Below, piece after piece: positions 13,610-43,720 of a DNA stretch of 64,000 nt. Origin of the DNA: Kiritimatiellia bacterium (GTDB lineage: Bacteria; Verrucomicrobiota; Kiritimatiellia; CAIQIC01; Lenti-01); contig JAFYAC010000018.1 of the NCBI GenBank assembly GCA_017540905.1, positions 42,344 through 106,343 of the forward strand, in the 5' to 3' direction. The position numbers and the translations under genes are program-made. The notes under the pieces were generated by a model. The model did not search any database and was not told the origin of the DNA. It saw only the letters and a program-made list of their open reading frames with translations. The first letter of the stretch is position 1. Every line of letters begins with the position of its first letter.

Positions 13610-13637
13610 GGCAAAACTCCTAGGGGGGGATTTACGA

Positions 13638-17561: not shown

Positions 17562-17573
17562 GGGGGGCTCCGG

Positions 17574-25634: not shown

Positions 25635-25759
25635 GGCGGGGGGCGCCGCCGGTTGGGGCGGCATGGGGGAGTTTGGCGGGCCAGCAGGCACAACTCAAGC
25701 GAAAACGCGCGGGAGGGGAGGAGGTGTGTGCATGGGGGTGATGATGGGGTGAAATGGTT

Positions 25760-26050: not shown

Positions 26051-27190
26051 TCAGCGCTGCAAGTCGGCGCGGAGGGCGTCGATGGCGGCGCGGTGGGAGA
26101 AGTCGAGGGGGGGGAGTTTGCCGGAGAGGCCTTTGTGGATGCGGATGTCCAGGAAGGCGGGGCGGCCGTCGGGGTCGGCGGCGGAGGCGCGGAGGGCGGC
26201 GAGGGCGGAGACGAGCTCGTCCTTCGTGGTGGCGGGTCGGCCGACGGTGCGGTAGCCGCAGGCTTCGGCAATCTTCGTGAAGTCCACCAGGTGCCCGGCG
26301 GAGGGCTGGCCGCCGACCGATTCGTGGGCGCCGTTGTTGAGTACGGCGTGGAGGAGGTTCGGGACGCGCGTCTTGCTGGCCATGGTCATGGCGCCGAGGT
26401 GCATCATGGCGGCGCAGTCGCCGTCGAGCACCACGACGGGGCGGTCCGGCTTGGCCATCGCGATGCCGAGCGCGACCGAGGAGGCGTGGCCCATGGCGCC
26501 GACGTTGAGGTAGTCGCGGGCCTTCGTCTCGCCGCGCCGTTCGCGCAGGAAGAAGAGTTCGCGCGTGGCACGGCCGGTGGTCGCGGAATACACGGTGTCG
26601 GGCGGCATGTGGTCCAGGATCGCCGCGATGGCTTCCTCGCGGCCCATGGGATACGTTCCGTCGCGGTTGTTCGCCTTGTCGCCGGCCATGACGCCCTTGG
26701 GGGCGATCAGGGCGTAGGGTTTGCGCTCGACCTTGCAGAAGGCGGCGGCCGCACGGACGGTTGCGGCGAAGGCCGCATCGTCGTCGGAGAGCACGGCGTG
26801 GGGGATGTGCAGGACGTCCATCAGCGGGATGGTGGCTTCGCCCTGCAGCCCGTGCTGGGGCCAGTCGCCGGTGCCGGGCTGGCCGCGCCAGCCGACGAGG
26901 AGGAGCATGGGGACGGCGTAGACGTGCACGTCCGCGAGGGAAGCGAGCGGGTTGACGGCGTTGCCGATGCCGCTGTTCTGCATGTACACGAGCGGCAGAT
27001 CCCCGGTGGCGAACCAGTGGCCCGCGGCGATGCCGACGGCGTTGCCTTCGTTGGCGGCGATGACGGTGCGGTCGGGGAAGTGCGCGAGGGCGTGGTTGCA
27101 GAAGCCGTTCAGGTAGGAGTCCGGAACGCCCGCATAGAAGCGGACGCCCGCCTTGTCCAGTTCGTCGAATACCCGGGTTTGGTCCAGCAT
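26051..27190 (-). CDS. TPP-dependent decarboxylase of the phosphonopyruvate/sulfopyruvate decarboxylase family
   Basis: 379 aa. N-terminus VFDELDKAGVRFYAGVPDSYLNGFCNHA matches the family's GVPDSLL pattern. Internal TPP-binding region LDGDCAAMMHLGAMTMA ... NNGAHES. No PEP mutase in the window. Confidence 0.7.
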   Translation of the reverse strand: MLDQTRVFDELDKAGVRFYAGVPDSYLNGFCNHALAHFPDRTVIAANEGNAVGIAAGHWFATGDLPLVYMQNSGIGNAVNPLASLADVHVYAVPMLLLVGWRGQPGTGDWPQHGLQGEATIPLMDVLHIPHAVLSDDDAAFAATVRAAAAFCKVERKPYALIAPKGVMAGDKANNRDGTYPMGREEAIAAILDHMPPDTVYSATTGRATRELFFLRERRGETKARDYLNVGAMGHASSVALGIAMAKPDRPVVVLDGDCAAMMHLGAMTMASKTRVPNLLHAVLNNGAHESVGGQPSAGHLVDFTKIAEACGYRTVGRPATTKDELVSALAALRASAADPDGRPAFLDIRIHKGLSGKLPPLDFSHRAAIDALRADLQR

Positions 27191-27197
27191 GGCTTCC

Positions 27198-28157
27198 TCA
27201 CTTTTTCGCTTTGAAGAGCGTGAAATATTCGGGGGCGTCCGTCCTGCAGACGGCCCACGCCTTGTCGAATGCCTCGGTCATCCCGTCCGGCAGCGGCCCG
27301 CCCGCGGCGGCGGCGAGGTTCTGGGCGAGGTGCCCGGCCTTGGAGGCGCCGACGATGATGGCGTCCCCGCGCGCGGCGGAGAGCATGGAGTGGTGGACGA
27401 GCCAGCGGTAGACGGCTTCGACGAGGCCGATGCCGTGCGCGGCGGCGGCTTCCTTGAGAAGCTCGACGGCGTCGAAGCAACTCTTCTTCCAGTAGCGGTT
27501 CCGGTAGCCGGGGCGGTGGGTGAAGCGGCCGTCGTCGGGGGCGTCCTCGAACTTGCCGTAGCGGCCGGTGAGGAGCCCGCCCGCGAGGGGATTGTAGGCG
27601 CAATACCGCATCCCGAAGCGGTCCAGGCAGGCGTTGAGTTCCGTCTCGGCGCGGCGGGCGAGCGGGTTGTACATGCCTTCGTACACGGTCGGCTTGACCC
27701 AGCCCTCGCGTTCGCAGATGCGCCAGGCGTCGGCGACCATCCACGCGGGGAAGTTGCTCAACCCGAGCTCGCGGAACTTGCCCTGGCGGTGCAGGTCGGC
27801 CATCGCCTCCAACACCGATTCCACGGGCGTCGCCGGGTCGGGGAAGTGCAGGTACACCGTGTCCACGCTGGCGACGCGCAACCGCTCCAGGCTCTCGTTG
27901 ACCTGCTTGTAGGCCGCTGCGCCGTCGAGGCGCCCGCTGATGCGCGGATTGACCTTGGTGGCGATCTTGAACGGATGCCCCATGCCTTCCAGCGCCTCGC
28001 CGAGCAGCCGCTCGCACTGGCCTTCGTTGTAGACGTAGGCCGTGTCCAGCTCGGTGCCGCCGGCATCAAGGAAAAGCCGCAGGAACTCCCCCACCTCCGG
28101 CGCGAATACGCTCTCGCCGAACGTCATCGTGCCCAACACCAATTTCATTCCGTCCAT
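27198..28157 (-). CDS. Aldo/keto reductase
   Basis: 319 aa with AKR hallmarks (LDTAYVY, GLSNF). The track ORF 27198..29456 fuses it with an upstream out-of-frame artefact. Confidence 0.85.
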   Translation of the reverse strand: MDGMKLVLGTMTFGESVFAPEVGEFLRLFLDAGGTELDTAYVYNEGQCERLLGEALEGMGHPFKIATKVNPRISGRLDGAAAYKQVNESLERLRVASVDTVYLHFPDPATPVESVLEAMADLHRQGKFRELGLSNFPAWMVADAWRICEREGWVKPTVYEGMYNPLARRAETELNACLDRFGMRYCAYNPLAGGLLTGRYGKFEDAPDDGRFTHRPGYRNRYWKKSCFDAVELLKEAAAAHGIGLVEAVYRWLVHHSMLSAARGDAIIVGASKAGHLAQNLAAAAGGPLPDGMTEAFDKAWAVCRTDAPEYFTLFKAKK

Positions 28158-28195
28158 CGCATGCCTCCTTGGCCGCTCTTGCCGCCCGGCCGCAT

Positions 28196-29365
28196 TCAGT
28201 GTTTCCGCCTTGCCATGTCCTTCCGATAGGTCATGGCATGTTCCACCGCGTATCCGAAGAAGGGCAGCGGGTCCGCCCACGAGAAAATGTAGTCGTGGTT
28301 CCGGCGGAAATCGAACCACGACGGCCTTGCCGAAAAGCGGTTCGGCGACTTGAGCAGCCACATGATGTCCGTGTGGAAATAGCGCAGCCCCAGTCCTTCC
28401 CGGATGGGTTCCGTCCGCACCGGCGGCTCCACTCCGTACGCCTGGTCGAGCAGGCAGCGCACCGGCTGGCATCCCGCCAACTCGACGATTTTGACCCCGG
28501 CGGAAATCCGCCCGTTGATTTCCAGCACCTTCGCCACCCCGTCCCGCGCGTCCATGATGAAACTCACCTGCCCGAACCCTTTCCAGCCCAATGCCCGGAA
28601 GAGCCGGACTGCGTTCTCCCGGACCTCGGGCATGTCCACCGTCCGGGCGAAACAGCCCGGCCCCCCGTCGATGGGATACCAGCGGTACGTCTGGATGGTC
28701 ACGGCAAACACGGCCCGCCCTCCTTCGCCCATCATCACATAGCAGTTGCACATGTGGGTGTTCTGGGGGATGAACTCCTGGATGACATATTCGCTTTCCA
28801 CGATGTCCCCGGAGGCCATCAACGCCTCCAGCTGGGCCCGGTCGTGGATTTTGCGGAAACCGGCGGAGCCGCTGCCGCGCCTCGGTTTGGCGGCCAGGGG
28901 GAAGCGGGCGGCCGCCAGGAACTCTTCCAGGCTTTCGTCGTCCAGCTTCGTCCGCGGGCACGGGATGCCGTTTCCCATGCAGGCCGCCATCGTCCGTTGC
29001 TTGTCGTAGGCCTGGAGGAAAGCCTCGCGGGGGGCGGCAATGATCTTGAGGCCGGGATGGAGCGCGCCGATCCGCCCGTCGGTGCAGAAATCGGTCGCCC
29101 GCTCCAGCACGGGGAACAGGATGTCGTAGCCGCTCTCGAGTTCCCGGCGGACGGCGGCCTCGTAGATTGCCGCGTCCTCTCGGATCCCGTGCACCACCAG
29201 GCGCTTCGACGGATACCGCGACATCCACCCCACGTCCCACCGCGACTCGCACATGGTCGTCACGCGGCAACCGAGCCCACGCAACTGGTGGAGAAGGCTG
29301 GGAATCTGCCGTCCGTAGCCGTCCAGCAGCAACACCCGTTTCCCCTTGTAGGCATCCGTTCCCAT
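28196..29365 (-). CDS. ATP-grasp domain protein (ligase), copy 4 of the cluster
   Basis: 389 aa with an ATP-grasp-like central region (PLAAKPRRGSGSAGFRKI ... VIQEFIP ... KVLEINGR). Start shares one nucleotide with the stop of the upstream MmgE/PrpD gene. Confidence 0.7.
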   Translation of the reverse strand: MGTDAYKGKRVLLLDGYGRQIPSLLHQLRGLGCRVTTMCESRWDVGWMSRYPSKRLVVHGIREDAAIYEAAVRRELESGYDILFPVLERATDFCTDGRIGALHPGLKIIAAPREAFLQAYDKQRTMAACMGNGIPCPRTKLDDESLEEFLAAARFPLAAKPRRGSGSAGFRKIHDRAQLEALMASGDIVESEYVIQEFIPQNTHMCNCYVMMGEGGRAVFAVTIQTYRWYPIDGGPGCFARTVDMPEVRENAVRLFRALGWKGFGQVSFIMDARDGVAKVLEINGRISAGVKIVELAGCQPVRCLLDQAYGVEPPVRTEPIREGLGLRYFHTDIMWLLKSPNRFSARPSWFDFRRNHDYIFSWADPLPFFGYAVEHAMTYRKDMARRKH

Positions 29366-30702
29366 CACAGTCCCTCCAGCACCCCGGCGACCATCCCCGT
29401 CCCGGCCATGACCGCGTCGAAGATCCGGTTTCTTGTGGCGCCATCCACGCCGGCATACTCCATGAGGCCGTCGTAGCGTTCCCGGAATTCGGCGTCCGTC
29501 AACGGGTTCTCCGGCTCTCCCTTCGGGAAATCCACCCGGGCGGTGAACTCGCCGCGCGCCGTCCTGGCGGTCACCTCCGCCGTCTGCCGGCCGGGGAAGG
29601 CCTCGCTGAACCCTTCGTCGGCCTCCACCCGCACTTTGCGGGCCAGTTCCAGCAGGTCGGGCCGCGCCACGGATTCCTCCGAGAACTCTTGCAGACCCGC
29701 CTTGCCGCACAGCAATCCCGCCGCCGTCGAGAAGGGGATGCTCATCTTCGCCGAATAGGGCCCTTTCACCTCCGTATGGTCGTGCCCGGCCACGGCCAGG
29801 GAATAGGTCTTCACGGCAATCCCCTCGACCTCGTCCGGGGCAACCTGCCCGCGCAGCCGGATGGCCGCCTCCACGGCGGGGTGCGTGTAGCGGCACGAGG
29901 CGTACGGCTTCGTGTAGGTCTTCATGATGGCGTACGTGCCCCCCAGCAGCACCGGTTTGAGTTCCACGTCCGCGCGGCCCGCCATCATCTTCAGGAACCC
30001 GCGCGCCCCCCCGAGGGAATCCGGGTGGACCCGGAAGCCGGCCGACCCCATCCACAGGCTGTCGAGCGCAAGCGCCGCCGCCTTCGCCACGTTGTACGGT
30101 TTGAGTTCCGACCCTTCGTCCAGCACCGAAAGCATCCCCGACGACGCGGCGCATGCCGCCGCGAAAACCCGGAACCGTTCCTCCCCGCCGAATCCCAGCA
30201 GTTCCGCCGCCGCCAGCGCGGCCCCCGGCGTCCCGCAGGTCCCCGTCGCGTGGAATCCCCTCGCCTTGTGTTCCGGCTGGATGGTCACCGCCAGCGTGTA
30301 GGACGCCTCGTACCCCAGCACCGCCGCGCGCAACACCTCCTCCACCGTCTTTCCCCCGCGCTCCGCCAGCGGCAAGAGCAGCGAGAAAACCGGCGAACCC
30401 AGATGGATGATCCCCGAGTTCGTCCCGTCATCGTAGTCCAGCGCGTGCCCGTTGAGCCCGTTGAGGAACACCGCCTCCTTCAGCGTGAAGCGCCGCCGGG
30501 TCCCGATGGCCGCCGATGCCCCCGCCTCCGGCATCGCGGCGGCAAAGTACCGTTCCAGCTTGCCGCGCTGGAAGGCGGCCCCCGCGCACGTCACCGCCAG
30601 GTAGTCCAGCAACGACCGGCGGGCCCGCGCCATGACCTCCCCCGGCACCTCCCGGGCGCGCACGGCGTCCAGCGCCGACAGGAATTCTTCCGTACGGTTC
30701 AT
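29365..30702 (-). CDS. MmgE/PrpD family protein (2-methylcitrate dehydratase-like), copy 2
   Basis: 445 aa, two-domain MmgE/PrpD fold sequence (HALDYDD ... KPYASCRYTHPAVEA). Confidence 0.8.
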   Translation of the reverse strand: MNRTEEFLSALDAVRAREVPGEVMARARRSLLDYLAVTCAGAAFQRGKLERYFAAAMPEAGASAAIGTRRRFTLKEAVFLNGLNGHALDYDDGTNSGIIHLGSPVFSLLLPLAERGGKTVEEVLRAAVLGYEASYTLAVTIQPEHKARGFHATGTCGTPGAALAAAELLGFGGEERFRVFAAACAASSGMLSVLDEGSELKPYNVAKAAALALDSLWMGSAGFRVHPDSLGGARGFLKMMAGRADVELKPVLLGGTYAIMKTYTKPYASCRYTHPAVEAAIRLRGQVAPDEVEGIAVKTYSLAVAGHDHTEVKGPYSAKMSIPFSTAAGLLCGKAGLQEFSEESVARPDLLELARKVRVEADEGFSEAFPGRQTAEVTARTARGEFTARVDFPKGEPENPLTDAEFRERYDGLMEYAGVDGATRNRIFDAVMAGTGMVAGVLEGL

Positions 30703-30724
30703 CTCCGCAGCCCTCCGCACCCGT

Positions 30725-31835
30725 TCATTTCCGGCACCCGAGGATGATGCCGCAGATCTCGTCCACGTCCTCCAGCGCGAGGTCGGCGTAGAGCGGCAGG
30801 GTCAGGACCCGGCGGCTGACGTGCAGCGCCACCGGCGTCTTCGACACGTCGTAGGCGCCGTGGAAGGCCGAGAACGTGTTCGTCAGCGGATGGAAATATT
30901 TTCTTGCCCCGATGCCCGCCGCTGCGAGGGCGGCGAACACCTCGTTGCGGCTCGCCCCGAACGTTTCCTCCTCGAAGACGACCGGGAAATACGCGTGGTT
31001 CGGCTTCACCTCCGGCTGGACGGCGTTCAGCTGCAGGCCTTCCACGCCTTCGAGGTGCGAGCGGTAGCGCGCAACCACCTTGCCCCGCTTCGCGATTTCC
31101 GCGTCCACGTGCCGCAGGTTGCAGAGCCCCATCGCAGCGCAGAGTTCGTTCATCTTGGCGTTCGCGCCGACCGCGGACACCTCCTCGGGGCCGTGGATGC
31201 CGAAGTTCTTGAGGTCGTAGAGGATTTCCCCGAGCTTCTCGTCCCGGAAGCACACCGCCCCGCCCTCGACCGTGTTGAACGCCTTCGTCGCGTGGAAGGA
31301 AAAGCACGAGGCATCCCCGAACGTACCGATGCCCTTCCCCTTGTACGTCTCCCCGAAGGTGTGAGCCGCGTCGTACACGACCTTCAGTTCGTGCTTCCTG
31401 GCAATCCGTTCGATTTCCTCCACGTTGCAGACGTTTCCGTACACGTGGACCGGCAGGATTGCGCACGTCCGGTCGGTGATCAACTCCTCCAGCTTCTCCG
31501 TGTCCATCGTGTACGTCACAGGATCGATGTCGCAGAACACGGGGGTGAGGCCGTTGCGGACAATGGCGTGCGTCGTCGAGGCGAACGTGAACGGCGTCGT
31601 GATGACCTCCCCTTGCAGGTTGAGCGCCTGGAGGGTCAGCTCGATGGCCATGTGCCCGTTCGTGAACAGGTCGATGCGCTCCACGCCCAAGTACTTGCAC
31701 AATTCCTCCTGCAGGAGCTTGTGCTTCGGCCCCATGTTCGTCAGCCAGTGGGTCTCCCAGAGCTCCCGGATTTCATCGACGAATTCCTCCAGCGGCGGCA
31801 TCGACGAGCGGGTCACGAGTATCCGTTTTTTCATG
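30725..31835 (-). CDS. DegT/DnrJ/EryC1/StrS family PLP-dependent aminotransferase
   Basis: 370 aa with the PLP-lysine motif SFHATKAFNTVEGG. Confidence 0.85.
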
Positions 31836-32799
31836 GGCGGTTTCCTTTCGGTGGGGTGGGGGAGGAGCGGGAGGGAAGCGCGTCCCGGACGGCGGTGAAC
31901 GCCACGGCCGCGCAAACGGCCCCGGCGACGCACAGCAACGGGCGGAGATACGCCACGGCCGTGTTGCCGGCGATGCCCGCGGCGGAGTAGAAGCGGTCGA
32001 GCAGGTGCCACACGGCGGGGTGGAGAACATAGACGAGCATGGAGTACTTCAGCCCGAGGACGGCCAGGCGCGAGCCTTCGCCCCACGCGGGATTCCGGAC
32101 GCACAGCAGGAAGAGGGCCGTGACCTGCGGGAACGTCACGATGTTCACCCCGAAATCGCGTCCCAGCAAAGCCCGTTCGACCGGGCACAGGAGGGTGGAG
32201 ACCGCCAGCACGGTCCAGAGCAGCCGGTTGGAAACCCGTATCCGCCCGGCGTTGGTCCGCAAGAGGTATCCGAGGGAAAACAGCGAAAAACCTTCAATCA
32301 GGAAATTCCGGTACCACATGTTGGGAATCTTGATTCCCGCAAGGTGCGCTCCCTGGGCCATGGCGATGTACACCGCGATGCCGGCGGGCACGGCAACCCA
32401 CGGCACCCACCGCAAGCCCTTGCGGTCGAACAGTGCGAACAGCGCGTAGTCGTACAGCAGGGCGAAAAGGAACCACATCTGGCCCGCGATGTAGAACGTT
32501 TTGTTGAACAACACCCAGTTGCGGAGCGCTTTGAAGTCCGGCCATCCCTCCCACGGGGCGTACAGCGGCGTCACCAGCACGTAGAACAGCGTCGTCCACA
32601 GTACAATCTCCAGCACGTGTCGGATCTTCTTCCCGTAGTCCGGGCGGCCCTTCGGGGAGTGGCAGAAATAGCCGCTGACCATGAAGAAGAACGGCACGCC
32701 GAACCGCGCCAGGCACTGCACCAGCGTCCCCAGGCGCCCCGGGAACTCGCAGTGCATGAAAACGATGGCGATGCACGCCAGCCCCTTCACTGCATCCAT
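31831..32799 (-). CDS. Acyltransferase family 3 (membrane O-acyltransferase)
   Basis: 322-aa polytopic membrane protein beginning MDAVKGLACIAIVFMHCEF with the family-3 acyltransferase pattern. Confidence 0.7.
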   Translation of the reverse strand: MDAVKGLACIAIVFMHCEFPGRLGTLVQCLARFGVPFFFMVSGYFCHSPKGRPDYGKKIRHVLEIVLWTTLFYVLVTPLYAPWEGWPDFKALRNWVLFNKTFYIAGQMWFLFALLYDYALFALFDRKGLRWVPWVAVPAGIAVYIAMAQGAHLAGIKIPNMWYRNFLIEGFSLFSLGYLLRTNAGRIRVSNRLLWTVLAVSTLLCPVERALLGRDFGVNIVTFPQVTALFLLCVRNPAWGEGSRLAVLGLKYSMLVYVLHPAVWHLLDRFYSAAGIAGNTAVAYLRPLLCVAGAVCAAVAFTAVRDALPSRSSPTPPKGNRP

Positions 32800-32849
32800 G
32801 CAGTAGTTGCGCCCGGCCGGAACGGCCGCAGGATGTAAAGAAAGGGCAT

Positions 32850-34280: not shown

Positions 34281-34326
34281 GGCGTGTGCTTTCTTTCTGG
34301 GGTGGATTCCTTGCGGGCCTGTGGCG

Positions 34327-35778: not shown

Positions 35779-35829
35779 CGATTTCCGCTTTCCGTTACCA
35801 TTCCGTTTGCCAGGACTGCGCCGACCGGC

Positions 35830-36972
35830 CTAGGCCTCCCACCAGAACTGCTTGTCCAGCTTCCAGCCGATCAAGTCCTCGAACTCCTTCTTCATGCCTT
35901 TCTGCCGGTAGAGCTGCCACATGAAATCGCCGCTGTAGTTGCCTTCCATGACACACCAGCCATTCTGTTTCGTCAGGACGAAGTCCCAGCCGACGTAACC
36001 GAATTTCGGCAACCTTCCGGCGCAGTCCCTGGCCATGTCCACCAATTCCTTCCAACGGGGAATTTGGAAGCCGACGAACGGGATGTGGCTGTCGGGATGG
36101 GCGTCGAACACCTCGTCCGTTTCGTTCATTCCGGGGGTATCGATGATGCCGGTTTCCGCATCGATGCCGGCATCGAGCGTCCCAAAGACGGCGCTGGTCA
36201 GAAAATTGCCGCCACGGCCTACCTTGAACCAGGGCTGGTAAATGTGGACATGCCCGTCCACATTGACGGTCGGGACGCGCACGCCGTTGACGGACTGGGG
36301 GTGGAACGCGGCCATTTCGTCCGCCTGTTCGATCAGTTCCTCCAGCACCACGGAAGATTCATGCCCTCTCCTGAATTTTTCCCGGTTGGCGGTGCCTTCC
36401 GCCAGCAGCTCTCCGAAGAAGGCACGCTTCCGCGCCGTGTCCATTCCCGCGACGGAGTCCCTGCGGACGCCGCGCCCGCCGCTCATGTCGGTGGGTTTCA
36501 CGACAAATTCCGGGTGCTTGTCCGTGAAGGCGAGGAATGTTTCCCAATCCGCCTCCGAGGAGCACAGGATGACATCGCGCTTGAAGTATTCCGGGAAAAG
36601 CCGGTACGTCTCGTATTTGTTGAACAGCAGGTGCTTTTCTTCCCTGGGGTTGAGGTGGTCCATGTAGAGCAGGCGCACGCGGAAGGCCATGTACTCCAGC
36701 TTTTCCGCATGGGTCTTGCGGGCGAAACCGTAGTAAAAGTATTCGTCGTAGGTGCTGCCGTAGACCCAGTAGTGGTAGATGGTCGCCAGAATCGCGTCCC
36801 CGACTTCCCCGTCCGTCGCCACCGGCATCCGCTTGCGGACGGCGGCCTCAATCTCGGCCATTGCCTTCTCGCCGTACTTGTCGGGCTTCAGGGCCATGAT
36901 TTCCCGGGCAATGGCCTTCATTTCGGAGGGATTGTCGGTGATCCGGATGATGTCTTTCAGCTTGTCGTTCAT
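35830..36972 (-). CDS. TupA-like (sugar-transfer-associated) ATP-grasp protein
   Basis: 380 aa. C-terminal FVVKPTDMSGGRGV ... GWDFVLTKQNGWCVMEGN resembles the TupA-type ATP-grasp seen in glycan or teichuronopeptide loci. Overlaps the upstream gene by 4 nt. Confidence 0.6.
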   Translation of the reverse strand: MNDKLKDIIRITDNPSEMKAIAREIMALKPDKYGEKAMAEIEAAVRKRMPVATDGEVGDAILATIYHYWVYGSTYDEYFYYGFARKTHAEKLEYMAFRVRLLYMDHLNPREEKHLLFNKYETYRLFPEYFKRDVILCSSEADWETFLAFTDKHPEFVVKPTDMSGGRGVRRDSVAGMDTARKRAFFGELLAEGTANREKFRRGHESSVVLEELIEQADEMAAFHPQSVNGVRVPTVNVDGHVHIYQPWFKVGRGGNFLTSAVFGTLDAGIDAETGIIDTPGMNETDEVFDAHPDSHIPFVGFQIPRWKELVDMARDCAGRLPKFGYVGWDFVLTKQNGWCVMEGNYSGDFMWQLYRQKGMKKEFEDLIGWKLDKQFWWEA

Positions 36973-38234
36973 GGGTTCTCCTCCGTTGTTGGCAGGTAGG
37001 CGTCGAGCATGGCGCGTTTTTGGCGGATTTCTTCGGGGGACATCGGGTTTTCGGGTTCCCCCTTGGCGTAATCGACCTGCTCGCGGAGGGTGGTGCCGTC
37101 CTTGAGGCGGACGGTCACGGCGGCGACCCGTTTGGCGGGGCAGAGTTCGCTGAATCCGGCGTTTTCGGCGACGCGGATTTTGGGGGCCAGTTCCAGGGCG
37201 GCGGGGTCCGGCGGTTCGAAGAGGGAGAGGTCGGCCCGCCCGTGCAGCAACGCGCAGGCGACGGCGTAGGGGGTGCTGAGCTTGGCCGAAGCGGCGCCGC
37301 GGATGTCGGAGTGGTCGTGCCCGCGCACGCCCAGGCGGTAGGTTTCCACCAGGACGCTTTCGATCTGCCCCGGAACGATGCCCGGATGGAGGCGGATGGC
37401 GGCCTCGACGGCGGAATGGCTGTGGCGGCAGGAGGCGTACGGCTTGACGTAGATGCGCTCGATTTCGAACCCCTCCGCGGGCCCGGCGAGTTTGTCGGCA
37501 TCGAAGCCGTCGGAGAAGATCTTGAAAAAGCCCCTGTCGCCATCGAGCATGTCGTCGGGGGGGACGAAGCCGGTGAGCCCCATGAAGGCGGCGGCGACGC
37601 CATCCATGGCGGCCCGACCGAGGTTGTAGGGCTTGAGTTCGGACTGCTGCTCCTGGATTTCGAGCATCCCGGCGGCGCTCCCGGCGGCCACGGCGATGAC
37701 CCGCTTGAGCTGTCCGGCGTCCATGCCCAGGGCGAACGCGCCGCCGACGGCGGCCCCGACCGTGCCGCAGGTCCCGGAGGCGTGGAAACCCTTCAGTTTG
37801 TGCCCCGGCTGGATGGCGATGGCCAGGCGGCAGGCGGCCTCGTAGCCCATCACGATGCCTTTGAGGACCGCGTCCTCCCCGAGGCCGCATTCGGCGCGGA
37901 CCGATTCGATGGCGGAAATCACGCAGGCACCGAGGTGGATCATGGCGAAGCGCTGTCCGTCGTCCAGCTCCAGGCTGTGGGCGTTGAAGCCGTTGACGAG
38001 GGCCGCGGTTTTGCCGTCGGTGCAACGTCCGCACCCCAGCAGCGGGACGGGGCCGTCCGGGCAGCGGGAGAGCAAATCCCGCCATTTGGCGCGGTTTTTG
38101 CGCGCGCCGGCGGCGGCGACCGCGAGGTAGTCGGCGCGGCAGTCCGCGGCCTTCGCGAGCACGGCGGGGCCGATTTGCCGGGCCTTCCCCGAGAGATATC
38201 CGGCAAAACGGTCCTGCATGTTCCCGCTGGGCAT
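36969..38234 (-). CDS. MmgE/PrpD family protein, copy 1
   Basis: 421 aa, paralog of 29365..30702 (HSLELDDG ... KPYASCRHSHSAVEA). Confidence 0.8.
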   Translation of the reverse strand: MPSGNMQDRFAGYLSGKARQIGPAVLAKAADCRADYLAVAAAGARKNRAKWRDLLSRCPDGPVPLLGCGRCTDGKTAALVNGFNAHSLELDDGQRFAMIHLGACVISAIESVRAECGLGEDAVLKGIVMGYEAACRLAIAIQPGHKLKGFHASGTCGTVGAAVGGAFALGMDAGQLKRVIAVAAGSAAGMLEIQEQQSELKPYNLGRAAMDGVAAAFMGLTGFVPPDDMLDGDRGFFKIFSDGFDADKLAGPAEGFEIERIYVKPYASCRHSHSAVEAAIRLHPGIVPGQIESVLVETYRLGVRGHDHSDIRGAASAKLSTPYAVACALLHGRADLSLFEPPDPAALELAPKIRVAENAGFSELCPAKRVAAVTVRLKDGTTLREQVDYAKGEPENPMSPEEIRQKRAMLDAYLPTTEENP

Positions 38235-38246
38235 GTCCGGCTCCGC

Positions 38247-39215
38247 TCAGATGTACCGGAAGCGGGCGATTTCGTCCGCCCTGCCGGCCTCGAAGAGCGC
38301 GATGTTGGTGAAGGCGCCGTGCATCATCGCGCGGAAGGAGTCGCCGGTCACGCCGGCGATGTGGGGGGTGAGGATGGCGTTGTCGAGGGCCTTGAGCGGA
38401 TAGTCGTCGGGGAGCGGCTCCTGCACGTGGGCGTCGATGCCCGCGAAGGCGAGCTTCCCGCCGCGCAGGGCGTCGGCCAGGGCCTGGACGTCGACGATCT
38501 GGCCCCGCGCGGTGTTGACCAGGATGGCGCCGTCCTTCATGCGGGCGATGGCGTCCGCGCCGACCAGGTTGCGCGTCGCGTCGGTCAGCGCGCAGTGGAT
38601 GGTGACGATGTCGGAGCGGGCCAGCAGGTCGTCCAGGGGGACGAACTCCATGCGGTTCTCCTCCTCGAAGGCGGCCGGTTCCCGGACGAGGTTGCAGTAG
38701 AGGATGGAGACGCCGAAGGGCTTGAGCAGCGCGACCAGGGCCTTGGCGATGTTGCCCATGCCGACGATGCCGACGGTTTTCCCGCGGAGTTCGGCGGTCT
38801 GCACGCCCTGTTCCTGCTTTTTCCAGACGCCGTTGCGGGTGTTGGCGTGGATGGCCGTCAGCCTGCGGAGGCAGGCCAGGATGAGCATGAGCGTGTGCTC
38901 GGCGCCGCTTTGGGCGTTGACGCCCTGGTTGACGTAGAGGGGGATGCCGTGCGCGCGGATGGCGCCGAGGTCCAGCGCGTCGAGGCCGACGCCGGAGCGC
39001 TGGATCATCTTCAGGCGGGGCGCGTTGTCCAGGACGTCCGCGGTCAGCTTCATGCGGCCGCCGGCGAGGATGTAGTCGGCGCCGCGGGCCTGCGCGACCA
39101 GGCAGTCGTGTTCCTGGCGGTCCAGGAATTCGAGGGCGAAGCCGGCGGGGAGTTCGCCCTCGACGATTTCCAGCGGGGCCCCCGTGTAGCGGTTTGTCAG
39201 CAGAATGGTTTTCAT
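38247..39215 (-). CDS. D-isomer-specific 2-hydroxyacid dehydrogenase (NAD-binding)
   Basis: 322 aa; GKTVGIVGMGNIAKAL Rossmann motif and the catalytic LVNTARG ... TPHIAG region. Confidence 0.85.
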   Translation of the reverse strand: MKTILLTNRYTGAPLEIVEGELPAGFALEFLDRQEHDCLVAQARGADYILAGGRMKLTADVLDNAPRLKMIQRSGVGLDALDLGAIRAHGIPLYVNQGVNAQSGAEHTLMLILACLRRLTAIHANTRNGVWKKQEQGVQTAELRGKTVGIVGMGNIAKALVALLKPFGVSILYCNLVREPAAFEEENRMEFVPLDDLLARSDIVTIHCALTDATRNLVGADAIARMKDGAILVNTARGQIVDVQALADALRGGKLAFAGIDAHVQEPLPDDYPLKALDNAILTPHIAGVTGDSFRAMMHGAFTNIALFEAGRADEIARFRYI

Positions 39216-39229
39216 GGCGGCAGCTCCCG

Positions 39230-40495
39230 TCAGTCGATCGAAATCCACGCGATCGGTTCGCCCTTTTCGTTCTCGATGCGCAGGTGGGACAGCATGTCTT
39301 CGGCGACCTTGCGGCGTCCTTCCTCGGGCAAAAACTTGTAGAGGACGCTGCCGATGACCTGCGCGGTGGTGCCGGCCTTGCCGACGACCGTCCCGGGCGA
39401 GAGGGCCGCGCTGGCCCGCAGCACGCGGGGGACCTTGGAGAGGGCTTCGAAGCCGTCCATCCGGGCAATCCGCTCGCCGGGCGTCCCGAGGATCCGCAGC
39501 ATGCCGTAGTGCTCGCGGAACCAGGGGGTCTCGCGGTCCGCGTCCCAGTCCTGGGCGCACCCGCCCGTCACGGCGAACTGGATGAGGAGCGCCAGCTCGT
39601 CGACGCCGGTCTGGTCCTGCACCAGCTGGTAGTGCTGGCCGCCGCTGGGGCGGTAGCACATCTCGCAGAAGTAGAAGGAGGAGTCGTCGACGAACGCCTG
39701 CAGGGCGATCATCCCGTTGCGGAAACCGTTGGCCTTGAGCATGCGGACGACGGCGGCGTCGACCTCATCGATGTAGCGGCGGGTGTATTTGGAGGGGTAT
39801 TCCGAATAGGCCGACACGGAGGACCCCGAGTCAGGGGCCTTGTACACCAGGCGGTCGTCCGTGGTGGAGAGGCGGACGTCGCCGTCCGCGGCGAAATAGG
39901 AGACGGCGACGTTGTCACAGTCCAGGTACTTCTCCACCATAATCTTCTTGCAGGCCGAGAACGACATCGCGTAGTCGAACGCCGCCTTCAATCCGTCCGG
40001 GCCGGTGCAGCGGATGACGCCTCGGGAACCACTGTTGTCCACGGGCTTGAGCATGAGGGGGAACCCGGTGCGCGCGGCGAAGGCTTCGGCTTCGGCCGGC
40101 ACCGACGTGGATATGCCGGGAATCACCGGCACGCCGGCGGCGAGGCACGCCTCCTTGAACACGGATTTTTCCGTGGCGACGGCGATGGACCGAGCGTCGC
40201 CGTAGCAGGGCAGGCCCGCCTCCTCGCAGATGCGCAGGTAGAAGGGCATGTAGGAGTCGGTGAATCCGGTGAGGACGCCGTCGATGCGCTCCTCCCGGAC
40301 CAGGCGCACGATGGCGTCGATGTCCGAGAAGTCGATGTCCCGGTACTCGTCGGCCAGGAGCTTGGCGGGGGCCTTGTCCAGGGGGCGGTTGTCGGTCACG
40401 ATGGTGTGCACGCCCAGTTGCCGGGCCTTCGCGACGATGCCGCCGATCAACCGGGTGCTGCCGAGGACAAGCAGTTTCTTGCCGTGTATGTTCAT
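39230..40495 (-). CDS. ATP-grasp domain protein (carbamoyl-phosphate-synthase L-chain-like ligase), copy 3
   Basis: About 422 aa; pre-ATP-grasp plus ATP-grasp layout (KKLLVLGSTRLIG ... FPLMLKPVDNSGSRGV). Track ORF extends upstream; start set at MNIHGKK. Confidence 0.7.
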   Translation of the reverse strand: MNIHGKKLLVLGSTRLIGGIVAKARQLGVHTIVTDNRPLDKAPAKLLADEYRDIDFSDIDAIVRLVREERIDGVLTGFTDSYMPFYLRICEEAGLPCYGDARSIAVATEKSVFKEACLAAGVPVIPGISTSVPAEAEAFAARTGFPLMLKPVDNSGSRGVIRCTGPDGLKAAFDYAMSFSACKKIMVEKYLDCDNVAVSYFAADGDVRLSTTDDRLVYKAPDSGSSVSAYSEYPSKYTRRYIDEVDAAVVRMLKANGFRNGMIALQAFVDDSSFYFCEMCYRPSGGQHYQLVQDQTGVDELALLIQFAVTGGCAQDWDADRETPWFREHYGMLRILGTPGERIARMDGFEALSKVPRVLRASAALSPGTVVGKAGTTAQVIGSVLYKFLPEEGRRKVAEDMLSHLRIENEKGEPIAWISID

Positions 40496-40517
40496 GCCCG
40501 CAGGGGTTCCTTCCTTT

Positions 40518-41492
40518 TCAGGGAATTGATTCCCCTGTGTAGCACAGTTGGACGGCTTCTGCCAAGTATTCCATCTCCTCCGGCCCGTACCGCTGGTCGA
40601 GGGGCAGCGGCAGGATGTCGCGCGCCAGGCGGCTTTCGGCCGCGTCCTCCCCGCACCAGCCGGAGACGGAGGGCCAGAGGGTCGGGACGTAGATGCGCCG
40701 GGCCTGGAGGCGCTTGCGGACGGCGGCGCCATTATCCAGCAGCAGCGGGTACATGAAGGTGCCGGGGGCGTCGGGGAGGGCCAGGCCGTTGAGCCCGCCC
40801 AGGCGGGCGTGGAGGAGCGCGTAGTTCCTCTCGCGGACTTCCCGCACGCGCATATAGTCGATGCCGCGGAGGAGGGTTTGGGTCAGCCTGGACATCCGCT
40901 TGACGGGTTCCGCGGCGAAGCGGACGTTGTTCGCGACGTATTCGGCGTAGAACTCGGAGGCCGGGCGCTCGACGCGGCCGAGGAGGAAGCGCATGCGGTC
41001 GAAGGATTCGTCGAGGGGGAGGCCGTCGCGGTCGCCGGGGGCGTCGGAGTACAGGAACGCGCCGTCGGCCACGCCGAAATACTTGCGGCACGTGTAGAGC
41101 GTGTCCACGCCGGGGAGCGGCGGCTGGAAGTAGCTCTGGGCGTTGTCCACGACGACGCGTCCGCCGAAGCGTGCCGCGACGGCGGCGATTTCGTCGTTGC
41201 CGAACCGGGAGTAGTAGTTGACGAAGTAGAACCACTCGCCCTCCCCAAGAGCCACCTCTTCCGCGGGCCGCAGGTCGGGGCCGATGCCGTAAAACGCCCG
41301 CGGAACCCCCTCGCGGTCGCATACGCCCGTCACGGAATCGCAAATCAGGCGGGGAATCCACAGCTTCCTGATGCCGCGCGCGTGGAGGAGCCAGGCCAGG
41401 GCGTTGCGGCCGCAGTTGAGGGCCAGGGCCCCCCCGTGCAGCAGGGGGCGGTCGCCGGCGTCCAGCTCGATGTAGCCGCCGATCTCCTTCAC
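40518..41492 (-). CDS. DegT-like PLP-dependent enzyme (GTG start overlapping the upstream stop)
   Basis: About 324 aa with weaker DegT/WecE-like similarity (ALNCGRNALAWLL ... LYTCRKYFGVADGAFLY). Family assignment is tentative. Confidence 0.5.
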   Translation of the reverse strand: MKEIGGYIELDAGDRPLLHGGALALNCGRNALAWLLHARGIRKLWIPRLICDSVTGVCDREGVPRAFYGIGPDLRPAEEVALGEGEWFYFVNYYSRFGNDEIAAVAARFGGRVVVDNAQSYFQPPLPGVDTLYTCRKYFGVADGAFLYSDAPGDRDGLPLDESFDRMRFLLGRVERPASEFYAEYVANNVRFAAEPVKRMSRLTQTLLRGIDYMRVREVRERNYALLHARLGGLNGLALPDAPGTFMYPLLLDNGAAVRKRLQARRIYVPTLWPSVSGWCGEDAAESRLARDILPLPLDQRYGPEEMEYLAEAVQLCYTGESIP

Positions 41493-42697
41493 GGCGAGGT
41501 CTCCCGCACGATGACGCGGATGTGCCTGCGGATGTCGCGGAGCACCGACGCCATTTCGTCCGCGCCCGGGAACCGGAAGAACACGATGCCCAGTGCGTAG
41601 GCCGCGTGGGTGAAGCGGTGGACCTCCGCGCCGGGCTCCTTGTAGATGCACTTGCGGACGATGAAAGGCTCGATTGCCGGATCGAATTCGATGCGTTCGA
41701 GGATGCCATCGCGGTCCGCATGCAGGTTGTGGGTCGCGCAGTACGGCGTGGGGGCGCGGTCCGGCACCGACACGCTTTCGCCCATGGCGGCCCGCACGGA
41801 CATCTCGACCACGTCCACCCCGAAAATCAGCCCCAACAGGTCCGGAATCATGTTCCCGCCGCTCCGGGGGCCGATGTCGATGGGGAACACGCGGCCGGAC
41901 TTGTCCACGACCAGCTCCACGTTCATCGGGCCGAAGCGGATGCCGAGGGCGTCCACCAGCCGCTGCAGCGTCTCCTCCACGGCCGCGAGGTCGGCCGGGG
42001 CCAGGAGCGCGGGATAGCTCTTGCCGACGGGCACCAGCGGATTCACGGAGGCATCCCGGTGGCAGTTCATCAGGCCCCACTGGATGACCTTGCCGTCCGA
42101 CACGAAGATGTCGCCGCCGACCAGGTACGGATGCCGCTTTTCGATGAACTCCTCCACCACGATCCGGCCGCCGCGCGAGAACGAAAACGCGAAATCCACC
42201 GCCGCCGGGTACCCCGACCGCCCCTGCACGACCGTGACCCCCTTGCTGCCCGACGAATCCACCGGCTTGACGATGAGCGGGAAAACAAACCCGTCCAGCG
42301 CGGCGGCGAGCGCCGACTCCCGGTCCGCAAAGCCCGCCGCCTTCGGCGTGTTGAACCCGTTCTCCGCCAGGAACCTCCGGAAGCGGTCCTTGTTGCAGAG
42401 GATTTCGACGGCCCCGCACGGATTGGTCGGCAGCCCCAGTTTCTCCGCCACGAAGGCCGCCGTGGGCGCCGCCGGGTCCGACGCGTAGGCGATGATCCCG
42501 TCGATCTTCTCCTTCCGCGCCACCGCCAGGATAGCCTCCCGGTCCGTCGTGCTGGTGCAGTAGAACTTGTCCGCGTGGAACTGCCCCGGATTGTCCGGCA
42601 GGTAATCGCACAGCACCGTCCGCAGCCCCAACCTCCGCGCCGTCTCCAGCGCCACCACCTGCTGTGCCGAACCGCCCAGGGAAAGGAGCGTCTTCAT
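41489..42697 (-). CDS. ATP-grasp domain protein, copy 1 and first gene of the cluster
   Basis: 402 aa; LIVKPVDSSGSKGV and a downstream ATP-grasp core. GGAGG RBS before the ATG at 42697. Confidence 0.7.
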   Translation of the reverse strand: MKTLLSLGGSAQQVVALETARRLGLRTVLCDYLPDNPGQFHADKFYCTSTTDREAILAVARKEKIDGIIAYASDPAAPTAAFVAEKLGLPTNPCGAVEILCNKDRFRRFLAENGFNTPKAAGFADRESALAAALDGFVFPLIVKPVDSSGSKGVTVVQGRSGYPAAVDFAFSFSRGGRIVVEEFIEKRHPYLVGGDIFVSDGKVIQWGLMNCHRDASVNPLVPVGKSYPALLAPADLAAVEETLQRLVDALGIRFGPMNVELVVDKSGRVFPIDIGPRSGGNMIPDLLGLIFGVDVVEMSVRAAMGESVSVPDRAPTPYCATHNLHADRDGILERIEFDPAIEPFIVRKCIYKEPGAEVHRFTHAAYALGIVFFRFPGADEMASVLRDIRRHIRVIVRETSP

Positions 42698-42865: not shown

Positions 42866-43228
42866 TATCCCCCCCTCCGAGAGGGGGGTGGCGCGGCCAT
42901 GGACGGGATGTTCATGGAGAGCCCAAGGGAAACAACCGGGGCCGCGACGGGGGGAGTACTGCGCTTGGTCGTTGCAGCAAGCGCGGCACTGTAGCCGTTC
43001 CGGGATGGCCGCGCTCCGTCGCGGCCGTGTGACAAGAATGCAAATCCGGCCCGGACGGAGCCGGGCCCTCCCAAGATGCGGCTATACTTTCTCTCAATTT
43101 GCGCCCGTTCGGAAGCCTGCGCCAACGGCATCCCGCAGTACTCCCCCCGACGCCCTTTCCAATCTCACCAAAGACACAATCGCTTGTCATCCCTTTCGCC
43201 GGGCGTCACCCCCCTCTCGGAGGGGGGA
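42866..43228. repeat. Nested inverted-repeat (MITE-like) element, copy 2
   Basis: ATCCCCCCCTCCGAGAGGGGGG ... GGGGGGAGTACTGCGC ... CGCAGTACTCCCCCCG ... CCCCCCTCTCGGAGGGGGG. Same architecture as 3079-3365. Confidence 0.5.
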
Positions 43229-43270: not shown

Positions 43271-43708
43271 TCACGCAAACGGATCCGACAGAATCCGGAA
43301 GCCGGCGTCCCGGAAATCGCGGACATTGCGGGTGTGGAACTCGTCCACGCCCCAGTACTTGAGCGTCTCGGCGAGCCGCGTGTCATGGATGCGGCGGCGG
43401 GCGAATCCCGTGGTGGCAGCGCGGCGCCACACGGCATTCATGGCGGACGGCGACGGCGGGATATCCACGACCGTCCAGGCCGGATTGCCCCGGTACGCGG
43501 CAACCACGGCCACCGCTTCCCCGGCCGAGAGCGGATGCTTCTGCACGACCGGGTTGCGCAACAGGCAATACAGCTCCACGAGCACCTGCTCCGCTACAAC
43601 GAACTGCGGATCATCGGCATGGGCGGCAATGAAAGCGTGCGCCGCGGCGTGGTTGGCGTCATCGGGATTGCAGGCCGCGAAAAAAACGTTGGTGTCGCAG
43701 GAAACCAT
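43271..43708 (-). CDS. vapC: PIN-domain toxin of a type II toxin-antitoxin pair (VapC family)
   Basis: 145 aa with the PIN acidic residues in conserved positions (SCDTNV, VAEQVLVEL, IHDTRLA, TRNVRDF). Confidence 0.75.
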   Translation of the reverse strand: MVSCDTNVFFAACNPDDANHAAAHAFIAAHADDPQFVVAEQVLVELYCLLRNPVVQKHPLSAGEAVAVVAAYRGNPAWTVVDIPPSPSAMNAVWRRAATTGFARRRIHDTRLAETLKYWGVDEFHTRNVRDFRDAGFRILSDPFA

Positions 43709-43720
43709 GCCCCTCTCCAG

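Follow-up and report, generated by a model that had tools for sequence, protein, structure and literature searches.

A mosaic operon of a rumen Kiritimatiellia bacterium is probably a tailoring cassette for surface polysaccharide

INTRODUCTION

What might be made by an operon that combines ATP-grasp ligases, aminotransferases, MmgE/PrpD-family enzymes, amino-acid permeases and a decarboxylase dependent on thiamine pyrophosphate (TPP)? The question is raised by 14 genes at positions 26051 to 42697 of a 64,000-nucleotide stretch of DNA from a rumen Kiritimatiellia bacterium (GenBank assembly GCA_017540905.1, contig JAFYAC010000018.1, positions 42,344 to 106,343). The whole stretch is called the window here, and the genes are numbered G1 to G14 in order of transcription. 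An initial annotation had offered two readings, a stepwise amide-forming pathway to a small molecule and the decoration of a cell-envelope glycan; the context of related genes favors the second. The block is probably a cassette that is exchanged horizontally and tailors a surface polysaccharide (capsule, O-antigen, or exopolysaccharide); its most likely task is to join amino acids and small hydroxy acids to the polymer's amino sugars. Surface polysaccharides govern the interplay of gut and rumen bacteria with phages, with host immunity, and with one another, and to our knowledge their chemistry is almost unknown outside a few pathogens.

RESULTS

Fourteen genes form one co-directional series

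GC3 frame analysis bore out the initial count: 14 minus-strand coding frames formed a single unbroken series between 26051 and 42697, and their start codons and ribosome-binding sites were plausible. All 14 reading frames were intact, with a strong GC3 codon bias, in a window of ~67% G+C. Family assignments were made by Pfam and NCBIfam profile searches, and housekeeping identity was judged against NCBIfam equivalog cut-offs. Thirteen of the 14 family calls of the initial annotation were recovered in this way; the remaining one, a DegT-like protein for G2, held at the level of the fold (predicted structure and fold search). The genes are as follows (LAL, L-amino acid ligase; PLP, pyridoxal phosphate; AKR, aldo/keto reductase; Ppd, phosphonopyruvate decarboxylase).

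G1, 41489..42697, minus strand: LAL-type ATP-grasp ligase, 402 aa; opens the operon and is translationally coupled to G2
G2, 40518..41492, minus strand: divergent DegT-fold, probably PLP-dependent aminotransferase-like protein, 324 aa (predicted structure)
G3, 39230..40495, minus strand: second LAL-type ATP-grasp ligase, 421 aa (Pfam CPSase_L_D2, ATP-grasp_4, ATPgrasp_N)
G4, 38247..39215, minus strand: D-isomer-specific 2-hydroxyacid dehydrogenase, 322 aa (Pfam 2-Hacid_dh_C, E=1e-58); opens the insertion
G5, 36969..38234, minus strand: MmgE/PrpD-family enzyme, 421 aa (Pfam MmgE_PrpD_N and MmgE_PrpD_C)
G6, 35830..36972, minus strand: ATPgrasp_ST protein (sugar-transfer-associated, RimK-like), 380 aa (PF14397, E=1.3e-43)
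G7, 34327..35778, minus strand: APC-family amino-acid permease, 483 aa (Pfam AA_permease_2 and AA_permease)
G8, 32850..34280, minus strand: second APC-family permease, 476 aa (Pfam AA_permease_2)
G9, 31831..32853, minus strand: Acyl_transf_3 membrane O-acyltransferase, 340 aa (PF01757, E=2.4e-30); closes the insertion
G10, 30725..31834, minus strand: DegT-family aminotransferase of DesI/perosamine-synthase type, 369 aa (Pfam DegT, E=2.5e-99)
G11, 29365..30720, minus strand: MmgE/PrpD-family enzyme, 451 aa (Pfam); opens the truncated PrpD-AKR-Ppd-like module
G12, 28196..29365, minus strand: ATP-grasp_3 ligase, 389 aa (Pfam ATP-grasp_3); variable cassette position
G13, 27198..28157, minus strand: AKR, 319 aa (Pfam Aldo_ket_red, E=1.4e-58)
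G14, 26051..27190, minus strand: Ppd-like TPP-dependent 2-oxoacid decarboxylase, 379 aa (TIGR03297)

From G1 to G14, the successive spacings were -4, 22, 14, 12, -4, 51, 46, -4, -4, 4, -1, 38, and 7 nt. Stop and start codons overlapped at 41489-41492 (GTGA), 36969-36972 (ATGA), 31831-31834 (ATGA), and 29365 (TGATG), which accounts for four of the five overlaps first reported; the other, at 30720/30725, is a 4-nt gap. A further GTGA overlap is possible at 32850-32853, giving five in the series, the fifth of them only possible. For G9, a GTG start gives 340 aa, whereas the ATG at 32799, which the public gene call uses, gives 322 aa; G11 has an alternative start at the ATG at 30702 (445 aa).

A core module of ligases and aminotransferases recurs in polysaccharide loci

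G1 matched ATP-grasp_4, ATPgrasp_N, and LAL_C2, all above gathering cut-offs, and its closest PDB entries were 4dim and the L-amino acid ligase BL00235. G3, 27% identical to G1, scored 26.3 bits against LAL_C2, slightly under the 29.4-bit cut-off. Housekeeping roles for the ATP-grasp genes were rejected, since their best scores in the block lay far under the equivalog cut-offs (75 bits against 502 for PurT, reached by G1; 22 against 318 for PurK; 41 against 599 for carbamoyl-phosphate synthase [CPS]). As the initial reading required, these proteins are not ordinary PurK, PurT, or CPS orthologs.

DesI (2po3) was the best PDB match of G10, at 208 bits, with perosamine synthase next; residues 179-184 of G10 form the Schiff-base lysine motif SFHATK. 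DesI and perosamine synthase are 4-aminotransferases that act on NDP-4-keto-6-deoxyhexoses.

A scan of one genome per GTDB species recovered 45 loci with G2 homologs, carried mostly by rumen and gut Clostridia (Ruminococcus, Faecalibacterium, Subdoligranulum, and Bariatricus) and also by Victivallales and Thermoguttaceae. These were surveyed together with two loci, L059 and L060, of the decarboxylase-containing module described below. Among the 47 loci, G2 was present in 44, G1 in 41, a G10-type DegT gene in 35, Wzx in 29, G3 in 26, RmlA/RmlB in 19 to 20, and an initiating phosphoglycosyl transferase in 13. The usual gene order was Wzx-G1-G2-(G3)-G10-RmlA-RmlB: G1 typically lay directly upstream of G2 and G3 between G2 and G10, with RmlA and RmlB commonly after G10. 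GT4 and GT2 glycosyltransferases, Wzy/EpsG polymerases, and Wzx made up the Pfam-annotated contexts of the core genes. G1-G2-G3-G10 is a widespread dTDP-sugar-linked module. Literature searches found no paper on the G1-G2-G3 unit.

G2 is annotated as hypothetical by NCBI; it had no Pfam or NCBIfam match at E<=0.01 and no PDB sequence match at E<=1. The top Foldseek matches of its AlphaFold (AF2) model (pLDDT 85) were ArnB, perosamine synthase, DesV, and WecE (E~1e-11, TM 0.6 to 0.66, probability 1.0). Invariant residues D116, Q119, and K137 of G2 aligned with D155, H158, and K184 of G10 in a weak hhalign alignment of the G2 family with a DegT alignment (E=0.04), which was used for motif register and not as proof of homology; D116 and K137 thereby fall on the PLP-binding Asp (pyridine N) and the Schiff-base Lys of G10. 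The modeled fold suggests that G2 is probably a DegT-fold, PLP-dependent aminotransferase-like enzyme. Its family is 60 to 70% identical across Kiritimatiellia, Clostridia, and Victivallales, and clustering at 50% identity leaves 1271 representatives of it at E<=1e-30. Four of these representatives (P0330, P0347, P0372, and P0438) are fusions, one to an LAL-type ATP-grasp domain (757 aa) and three to GNAT acetyltransferase domains (482 to 503 aa), which suggests that G2 probably makes an amine that is subsequently N-acylated.

The block is a mosaic of mobile modules

Two sister Kiritimatiellia loci, L061 and L063 (62 to 64% GC), carry three core genes at high identity (G1, 93 to 97%; G2, 86 to 93%; G10, 95 to 96%) and a much more divergent G3 (77 to 78%). 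The later genes are also present in L061 (G11, 91%; G12, 64%; G13, 93%; G14, 95%), and L063 has G11, G13, and G14 at 70 to 77% identity. In both loci the shared genes lie directly downstream of genes for a GT2 glycosyltransferase, Wzx, a small cytidylyltransferase, and an AT3 acyltransferase. Homology with L061 at the DNA level covered window positions 42696-39256, 31852-28196, and 28167-26047; it began at the G1 start codon and stopped 4 nt past the G14 stop codon. Relative to L061, positions 39255-31853 (G4 to G9) are thus a 7.4-kb insertion. G12 is only 64% identical to the allele shared by L061 and L065, in the midst of neighbors at 91 to 97%. L065 shows a third arrangement: G6 to G10, then the G12 allele of L061 type and one more PrpD gene, with G11 missing. 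In L055, a close relative whose UppP falls in the same 90%-identity protein cluster, there is no cassette, DUF218 gene, or GT9 gene beside serA-UppP, and in L061 a transposase gene follows the Ppd-like gene.

The block is therefore a mosaic of at least three independently mobile modules. Variable presence, breakpoints at the block ends, and mobile-element traces mark it as a genomic island or mobile cassette, and the three allelic arrangements together with the absence of the block beside serA-UppP in L055 agree with the accessory island first proposed.

The flippase, polymerase, glycosyltransferase, and initiating transferase genes of Wzx/Wzy-dependent polysaccharide loci surround the homologous genes in L061, L063, L012, L008, L025, L028, L059, and L060. 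Every module of the block has such a context: the sub-modules recur in loci with Wzx, Wzy, glycosyltransferase, and Rml genes, both in other phyla and in sister Kiritimatiellia, which supports the glycan-decoration reading of the initial annotation.

The inserted module resembles a Victivallales polysaccharide block

The gene content of the insertion (2-hydroxyacid dehydrogenase, PrpD-like, ATPgrasp_ST, permease, and AT3 genes) matched a block in the Victivallales polysaccharide locus L012 at 43 to 63% identity, and G1 to G5 were collinear with the Clostridia locus L025. G4 scored under every NCBIfam equivalog cut-off; its homolog is paired with a PrpD-like gene in L025 and L012 (59 to 60% identity). 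G5 and G11 are paralogs with 41% identity, and the closest PDB entries to G5 were the Bacillus subtilis IRG1 homolog and IDS epimerase (about 96 to 98 bits). True PrpD or cis-aconitate decarboxylase identity was rejected for both paralogs, as no match reached equivalog level; the models scored were those for PrpD, which gave G5 20 to 30 bits against cut-offs of 458 to 575 and the MmgE/PrpD genes of the block as a whole 18 to 30 bits against cut-offs of 458 to 950.

G6 had been called a TupA-like ATP-grasp protein. The ATP-grasp assignment stands; the TupA match is weak and secondary (E=0.006), and the primary family is ATPgrasp_ST (PF14397). No PDB relative of G6 was found in a sequence search; homologs with 44 to 45% identity lie in L012. 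A homolog of G7 (63% identity) also lies inside that locus, and G7 and G8 are 32% identical to each other.

With these assignments two other accounts of the block can be weighed. The first would make it a stand-alone cluster for a soluble peptide-like metabolite, for example an antimetabolite of L-amino-acid-ligase type whose units are unusual amino or hydroxy acids derived from keto acids, with the APC permeases as exporters or self-resistance proteins. G1 and G3, with LAL_C2 and ATPgrasp_N, do resemble BL00235; two permeases lie mid-operon, no glycosyltransferase, Wzx, or Rml gene is found among the 14, and the cassette is detached from the Wzx and glycosyltransferase genes that precede the sister-strain copies. 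We nevertheless consider this account unlikely, because the same genes (64 to 97% identical in L061) lie inside complete polysaccharide loci of sister strains and the G1-G2 pair lies between Wzx and DegT-RmlA-RmlB in dozens of species. Furthermore, G10 is a sugar aminotransferase of DesI/Per type, G6 belongs to a sugar-transfer-associated ATP-grasp family, and G9 is a glycan-type O-acyltransferase.

The second account would have ordinary housekeeping or catabolic operons (purine- or CPS-type ATP-grasp genes, a propionate-pathway PrpD, amino-acid uptake) thrown together by chance. Although the flanks are housekeeping genes and each family has housekeeping members, this account is effectively refuted and barely conceivable: the ATP-grasp and PrpD-like proteins scored 10- to 30-fold under the PurT, PurK, CPS, and PrpD equivalog cut-offs, their best homologs lie in Clostridia polysaccharide loci, and the block varies between strains and is absent beside serA-UppP in a close relative. 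It is thus not a stretch of conserved housekeeping synteny, in line with the initial view.

G14 belongs to a decarboxylase clade separate from PepM-linked Ppd

The G11, G13, and G14 trio is a truncated version of a conserved seven-gene module found in Eubacterium callanderi, Enterocloster citroniae, and several metagenome-assembled genomes, where its copies of the three genes are 61 to 72% identical to those of the window. The module, always within polysaccharide loci, consists in order of genes for a PrpD-like protein, an AKR, a Ppd-like protein, a Pfam-less 300-aa protein, a CitE/RipC-like C-C lyase (PF15617), and two Fe-S hydro-lyase subunits. G11 is 61 to 77% identical to the PrpD gene ahead of the AKR and Ppd-like genes in E. 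callanderi, E. citroniae, L028, L054, and L063, and almost every module-type locus has a G13 homolog directly ahead of its Ppd-like gene. G12 scored 69 bits against the NCBIfam "CPS-like" model PRK12767, under its cut-off. No paper on the PrpD-AKR-Ppd-lyase-hydrolyase module came up in literature searches.

The NCBI name of G14 is phosphonopyruvate decarboxylase, and the protein passed the corresponding equivalog, TIGR03297, with 393 bits against a 312.5-bit cut-off. The TPP motif GDC-X25-NN is present. Matches to the ComD (70 bits) and ComE (91 bits) models of sulfopyruvate decarboxylase were both under cut-off.

A metagenome scan yielded 80 loci with G14 homologs of 42 to 97% identity. All 49 homologs at least 49% identical to G14 lay in a context of AKR, PrpD, TIM-barrel, CitE-like, and Fe-S hydro-lyase genes, and none adjoined PepM (phosphoenolpyruvate mutase). 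Among homologs below 49%, 16 were module type and 9 were PepM adjacent, the latter all at <=48%. In a neighbor-joining tree of 69 homologs, the 55 module-type sequences, G14 among them, were monophyletic, and the 9 PepM-adjacent sequences fell in the other clade; identity between the two classes was 39 to 49%. A scan for the EDKX5NS motif and a tblastn search with the PepM domain found no PepM in the window or in 63 related loci, with the exception of L033, and the loci with G14 homologs of >=49% identity likewise gave none. Given its membership in the module clade and the lack of linkage to PepM, the best description of G14 is a Ppd-like 2-oxoacid decarboxylase, probably of nonphosphonate specificity; its database name looks like an over-annotation. 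Oxaloacetate-, sulfopyruvate-, and 2-oxoglutarate-type substrates would all be compatible with the gene context. The initial conclusion that a phosphonate product is not supported thus holds, now on considerably firmer grounds.

In L033, positions 16259-17416 encode a cytidylyltransferase-PepM fusion. Its N-terminal domain is 31 to 40% identical to free 146-aa CTP_transf_like genes adjoining Wzx (L061:7247-7687 and L012:7269-7709); the Kiritimatiellia and Victivallales loci with this free gene have no PepM domain. On the metagenome contig OCTX012255748.1 (L122, about 2600-11100), a canonical Ppd gene lies next to PepM, and the full module, with a Ppd-like paralog of its own, is found a few kilobases from them; of the two paralogs, one falls in each clade.

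Could G14 be a genuine phosphonopyruvate decarboxylase after all, serving a glycan phosphonate (2-aminoethyl- or 2-hydroxyethylphosphonate), with G13 reducing phosphonoacetaldehyde and PepM encoded elsewhere in the genome? The TIGR03297 score and the NCBI name agree with this, polysaccharide phosphonate decoration is common (PMC8942020, PMC6697681), PepM, a canonical Ppd, and the module occur together in L122, and the cytidylyltransferase in sister loci is homologous to the N-terminal domain of the PepM fusion. We regard it as quite improbable given the clade structure, in which PepM-adjacent Ppds stand apart at <=48% identity to G14 and L122 has two paralogs, one per clade, and given that PepM was found in L033 alone among the related loci. 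The conserved partners of the G14 clade are enzymes of organic acids (PrpD-like, CitE-like lyase, and Fe-S hydro-lyase). A PepM-independent route that would lead the module to phosphonate or sulfonate chemistry appears highly improbable.

Two further candidates were rejected. The CitE-like lyase is not a hidden PepM, as it lacks the EDKX5NS motif, and a coenzyme-M-like ComABCDE pathway was excluded by the lack of any ComA or ComB family match and by the ComD and ComE scores under cut-off.

A PDB sequence search with the CitE-like lyase found nothing. For the 300-aa partner, the PDB sequence search gave only insignificant matches (E>0.2), and no Pfam or NCBIfam model matched. Its AF2 model is a TIM barrel, for which Foldseek returned only generic aldolase and lyase barrels (TM 0.45 to 0.52). 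The protein, absent from the window, is encoded at L059:11217-12125, L060:11145-12047, L063:19068-19970, and about 50 metagenome loci; with 5491 hits, it is conserved at 83 to 93% identity in many gut bacteria, where it sometimes bears the name "peptidase."

The truncation suggests another account, in which the block is a partly decayed recombination product: G1 to G3 and G10 would be functional, and G11 to G14, possibly with G4 and G5, would be a truncated, noncontributing remnant that lacks the enzymes to form its precursors. In most full-length loci the Ppd-like gene is indeed followed by those for the TIM barrel, the CitE-like lyase, and the Fe-S hydro-lyase, whereas the window, L061, and L065 stop at its stop codon, where L061 has its transposase; the MITE-like (miniature inverted-repeat transposable element-like) sequence described below and the three allelic arrangements show continuing rearrangement. 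This account is nonetheless distinctly unlikely, since all frames are intact with strong GC3 codon bias, and G13 and G14 are 93 to 97% identical across the three arrangements in many samples, which suggests purifying selection. Moreover, the truncated versions are accompanied by permeases or by an additional PrpD paralog, which could provide or stand in for the absent steps.

Flanking genes and repeats

Three features next to the cassette are as follows.

DUF218/ElyC-like envelope-biogenesis gene, 24828..25691, minus strand: Pfam DUF218; 359 nt downstream of G14
GT9 (heptosyltransferase-family) glycosyltransferase gene, 23695..24831, minus strand: Pfam Glyco_transf_9, E=1e-25; 4-nt overlap with the DUF218 stop codon
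MITE-like element, 42870..43227, no strand assigned: nested terminal inverted repeats; between G1 and the PIN gene, at the upstream cassette boundary

The block is flanked by housekeeping genes (trp operon, serA, UppP, and YchF). UppP lies downstream of the block, as do DUF218 and GT9, so the three envelope genes of the initial annotation are present there. The DUF218 gene scored 83 bits against the ElyC NCBIfam model, under the 205-bit cut-off, and the GT9 gene fell under the cut-offs of the heptosyltransferase equivalogs. Co-directional with G14 and outside the homologous cassette, the DUF218/ElyC-like gene may be a co-transcribed neighbor.

The repeat said to bound the cluster was found at 42870-43227 (358 bp), with a second copy at 3080-3359 (280 bp); the chance expectation was 0. 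Both copies have terminal inverted repeats of 21 to 25 nt (CCCCCCTCCGAGAGGGGGGTG) and subterminal GGGGGGAGTACTGCG motifs, and inverted repeats I2 and I3 have 25-nt arms that are 96% complementary. The adjoining VapBC module was borne out in part: there is a PIN-domain gene at 43271-43708 (minus strand), with a weak match (E=5e-4) under the Pfam cut-off, and the 81-aa open reading frame (ORF) ahead of it (43708-43950, minus strand) had no family match and is a loose fit as its partner. Just upstream of this ORF lies the best sigma-70-like promoter match of the region (10/12, at 44011-43983); promoter and terminator scans performed no better than on shuffled sequence. No tRNA genes or integrase were found at the block.

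Beyond these, a ~2-kb low-GC segment (41 to 49%, 44000-46000) lies inside a 2250-aa ORF (44091-50843, plus strand) whose N-terminal region resembles an alpha/beta hydrolase and precedes 14 Flg_new (Listeria-Bacteroides) repeats; the gene looks chimeric, its low-GC 5' part being a recent acquisition. A 1465-aa ORF (55215-59612, minus strand) has CotH kinase-like, Fn3-associated, and chitobiase C-terminal domains, and near it is a weak CDP-glycerol glycerophosphotransferase-like gene (60038-61213). An AAA_14/DUF4143 ATPase gene (14407-15564, minus strand) lies between trpB/trpA (11602-13723) and trpD/trpE (16521-19789).

DISCUSSION

We propose the following chemistry for the cassette. G10 would turn an NDP-4-keto-6-deoxyhexose into a 4-amino sugar; the substrate is probably dTDP linked, because adjacent RmlA and RmlB make it in relatives. 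G2 would add another amine, either to the sugar itself or to its acyl chain. G1 and G3 would convert amino or organic acids to acyl phosphates at their carboxylates and link them by amide bonds to the amines provided by G10 and G2, so that the product of the core module would be a peptidyl- or acyl-amido sugar. In the inserted module, G4 and G5 may make a 2-hydroxy acid from a 2-oxo or unsaturated dicarboxylic acid, G6 may add further amino-acid residues, and G9 may O-acylate the glycan. G7 and G8 could import amino-acid or acid precursors, a role suggested by the finding that the window and L012 lack the lyase, hydro-lyase, and TIM-barrel genes but have permeases. G11, G14, and G13 would act on a 3-substituted 2-oxo acid, probably not phosphonopyruvate, to give an aldehyde and then a chain-shortened hydroxy-acid or alcohol building block, which G12 would couple. 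Like G1 and G3, the ligases G6 and G12 would use acyl phosphates, and the four would build up amide-linked chains of amino or hydroxy acids. This copy of the cassette would feed Wzx and glycosyltransferase machinery encoded elsewhere in the genome.

Several points weigh against the proposed role in polysaccharide tailoring. The 14 genes include no glycosyltransferase, Wzx/Wzy, Rml, or initiating transferase gene, and the window has only the downstream GT9; the link to a glycan therefore rests on the relatives. A pair of APC permeases is an uncommon feature of glycan loci, and the two might export a soluble product instead. The profile-profile alignment of G2 is statistically weak (hhalign E=0.04). 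The 300-aa TIM barrel, CitE-like lyase, and two Fe-S hydro-lyase subunits that accompany G11, G13, and G14 in most full-length loci are missing from the window, L061, and L065, and the G11-G14 branch may lack its substrate or be decaying. Finally, we know of no characterized enzyme here or in the homologous loci and of no glycan structure from the carriers.

More tentatively, and with nearly even weight for and against, we suggest that G14, the PrpD-like protein, and the AKR (joined elsewhere by the TIM barrel, CitE-like lyase, and Fe-S hydro-lyase) form an undescribed PepM-free pathway to a new small acidic building block, which the ligases, together with G2, attach to amino sugars. Such a block would be, for example, a carboxy- or sulfo-substituted C2-C4 hydroxy acid. 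If this is true, it would be a previously unrecognized class of acyl- or peptidyl-amido glycan decoration that is widespread in gut and rumen bacteria.

The cassette is of a known kind, the strain-variable polysaccharide tailoring locus, and holds members of two sizeable uncharacterized enzyme clades, the G2 family and the G14 clade. It exposes a widespread unit of two aminotransferases and two ligases that probably makes peptide- or acid-capped amino sugars, and it is a clear case of a glycan-tailoring cassette shuffling among Clostridia, Victivallales, and Kiritimatiellia that share a habitat. Counting Ppd annotations as evidence for phosphonates would overcount them, and a new TPP-decarboxylase specificity awaits discovery. 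Cultured carriers include Eubacterium callanderi, Enterocloster citroniae, Faecalibacterium tardum, Ruminococcus spp., and Bariatricus massiliensis.

Several characterized systems share parts of this proposed chemistry. The L-amino acid ligases of dipeptide antibiotics (BacD/YwfE, RizA, TabS, and BL00235) have the ATP-grasp, ATPgrasp_N, and LAL_C2 domains seen in G1 and G3, which presumably use the same acyl-phosphate mechanism. The cassette differs in its context of glycan assembly, in its acceptor, which would be an amino sugar, and in the distance of its ligases from the solved LALs (70 to 76 bits). Among ATP-grasp amidoligases of surface glycans are the glucuronamide ligase of the Campylobacter jejuni HS:2 capsule (Cj1438) and TupA of Bacillus teichuronopeptide. 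Like them, G6, by sequence a clear ATPgrasp_ST member, may attach amines or amino acids to polysaccharide units. Cj1438 and TupA amidate uronic acids, whereas the conserved partners of the cassette ligases are aminotransferases, which would imply N-acylation of amino sugars.

In Vibrio cholerae O1, perosamine is N-acylated with 3-deoxy-L-glycero-tetronic acid. The likeness lies in a Per/DesI-type 4-amino-4,6-dideoxyhexose that is N-acylated with a small hydroxy acid made by genes of the same locus; V. cholerae O1 uses an acyl carrier protein/acyl-AMP route (RfbK-O) and not ATP-grasp, TPP-decarboxylase, or PrpD-like enzymes. The nearest nonphosphonate relative of Ppd is the sulfopyruvate decarboxylase ComDE of coenzyme M biosynthesis, and the substrates of both are 3-substituted pyruvates. 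ComDE has two subunits, whereas G14 is fused, and no ComA, ComB, or ComC homologs were detected.

In the phosphonoglycan pathway, PepM and Ppd act with a 2-aminoethylphosphonate (AEP) transaminase, as for Bacteroides fragilis polysaccharide B (PMC8942020, PMC6697681). Here too a Ppd-type TPP decarboxylase lies in a polysaccharide locus, and its aldehyde product would be reduced or transaminated into a glycan substituent. The cassette has no PEP mutase, and the G14 clade is linked instead to PrpD-like, AKR, CitE-like lyase, and Fe-S hydro-lyase genes.

The closest characterized analogue of the cassette appears to be the locus for the sulfonated peptidylamido-glycan of Clostridioides difficile type B flagellin (CDR20291_0241-0247), which needs an ATP-grasp protein encoded beside an FdtB-like DegT aminotransferase and caps an amino-deoxyhexose with a short peptide-like chain of Ala, Gly, and taurine (PMC5207245, PMC5207246). 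That locus serves O-linked glycosylation of flagellin in a Firmicute, uses a 3-amino sugar, and encodes FemAB-like and ornithine-cyclodeaminase-like proteins; the G2-type enzyme, the PrpD, AKR, and Ppd-like genes, and the permeases of the cassette have no counterpart there. The two are alike in joining an amino sugar with ATP-dependent amide formation, a pairing that in the cassette is read from its genes.

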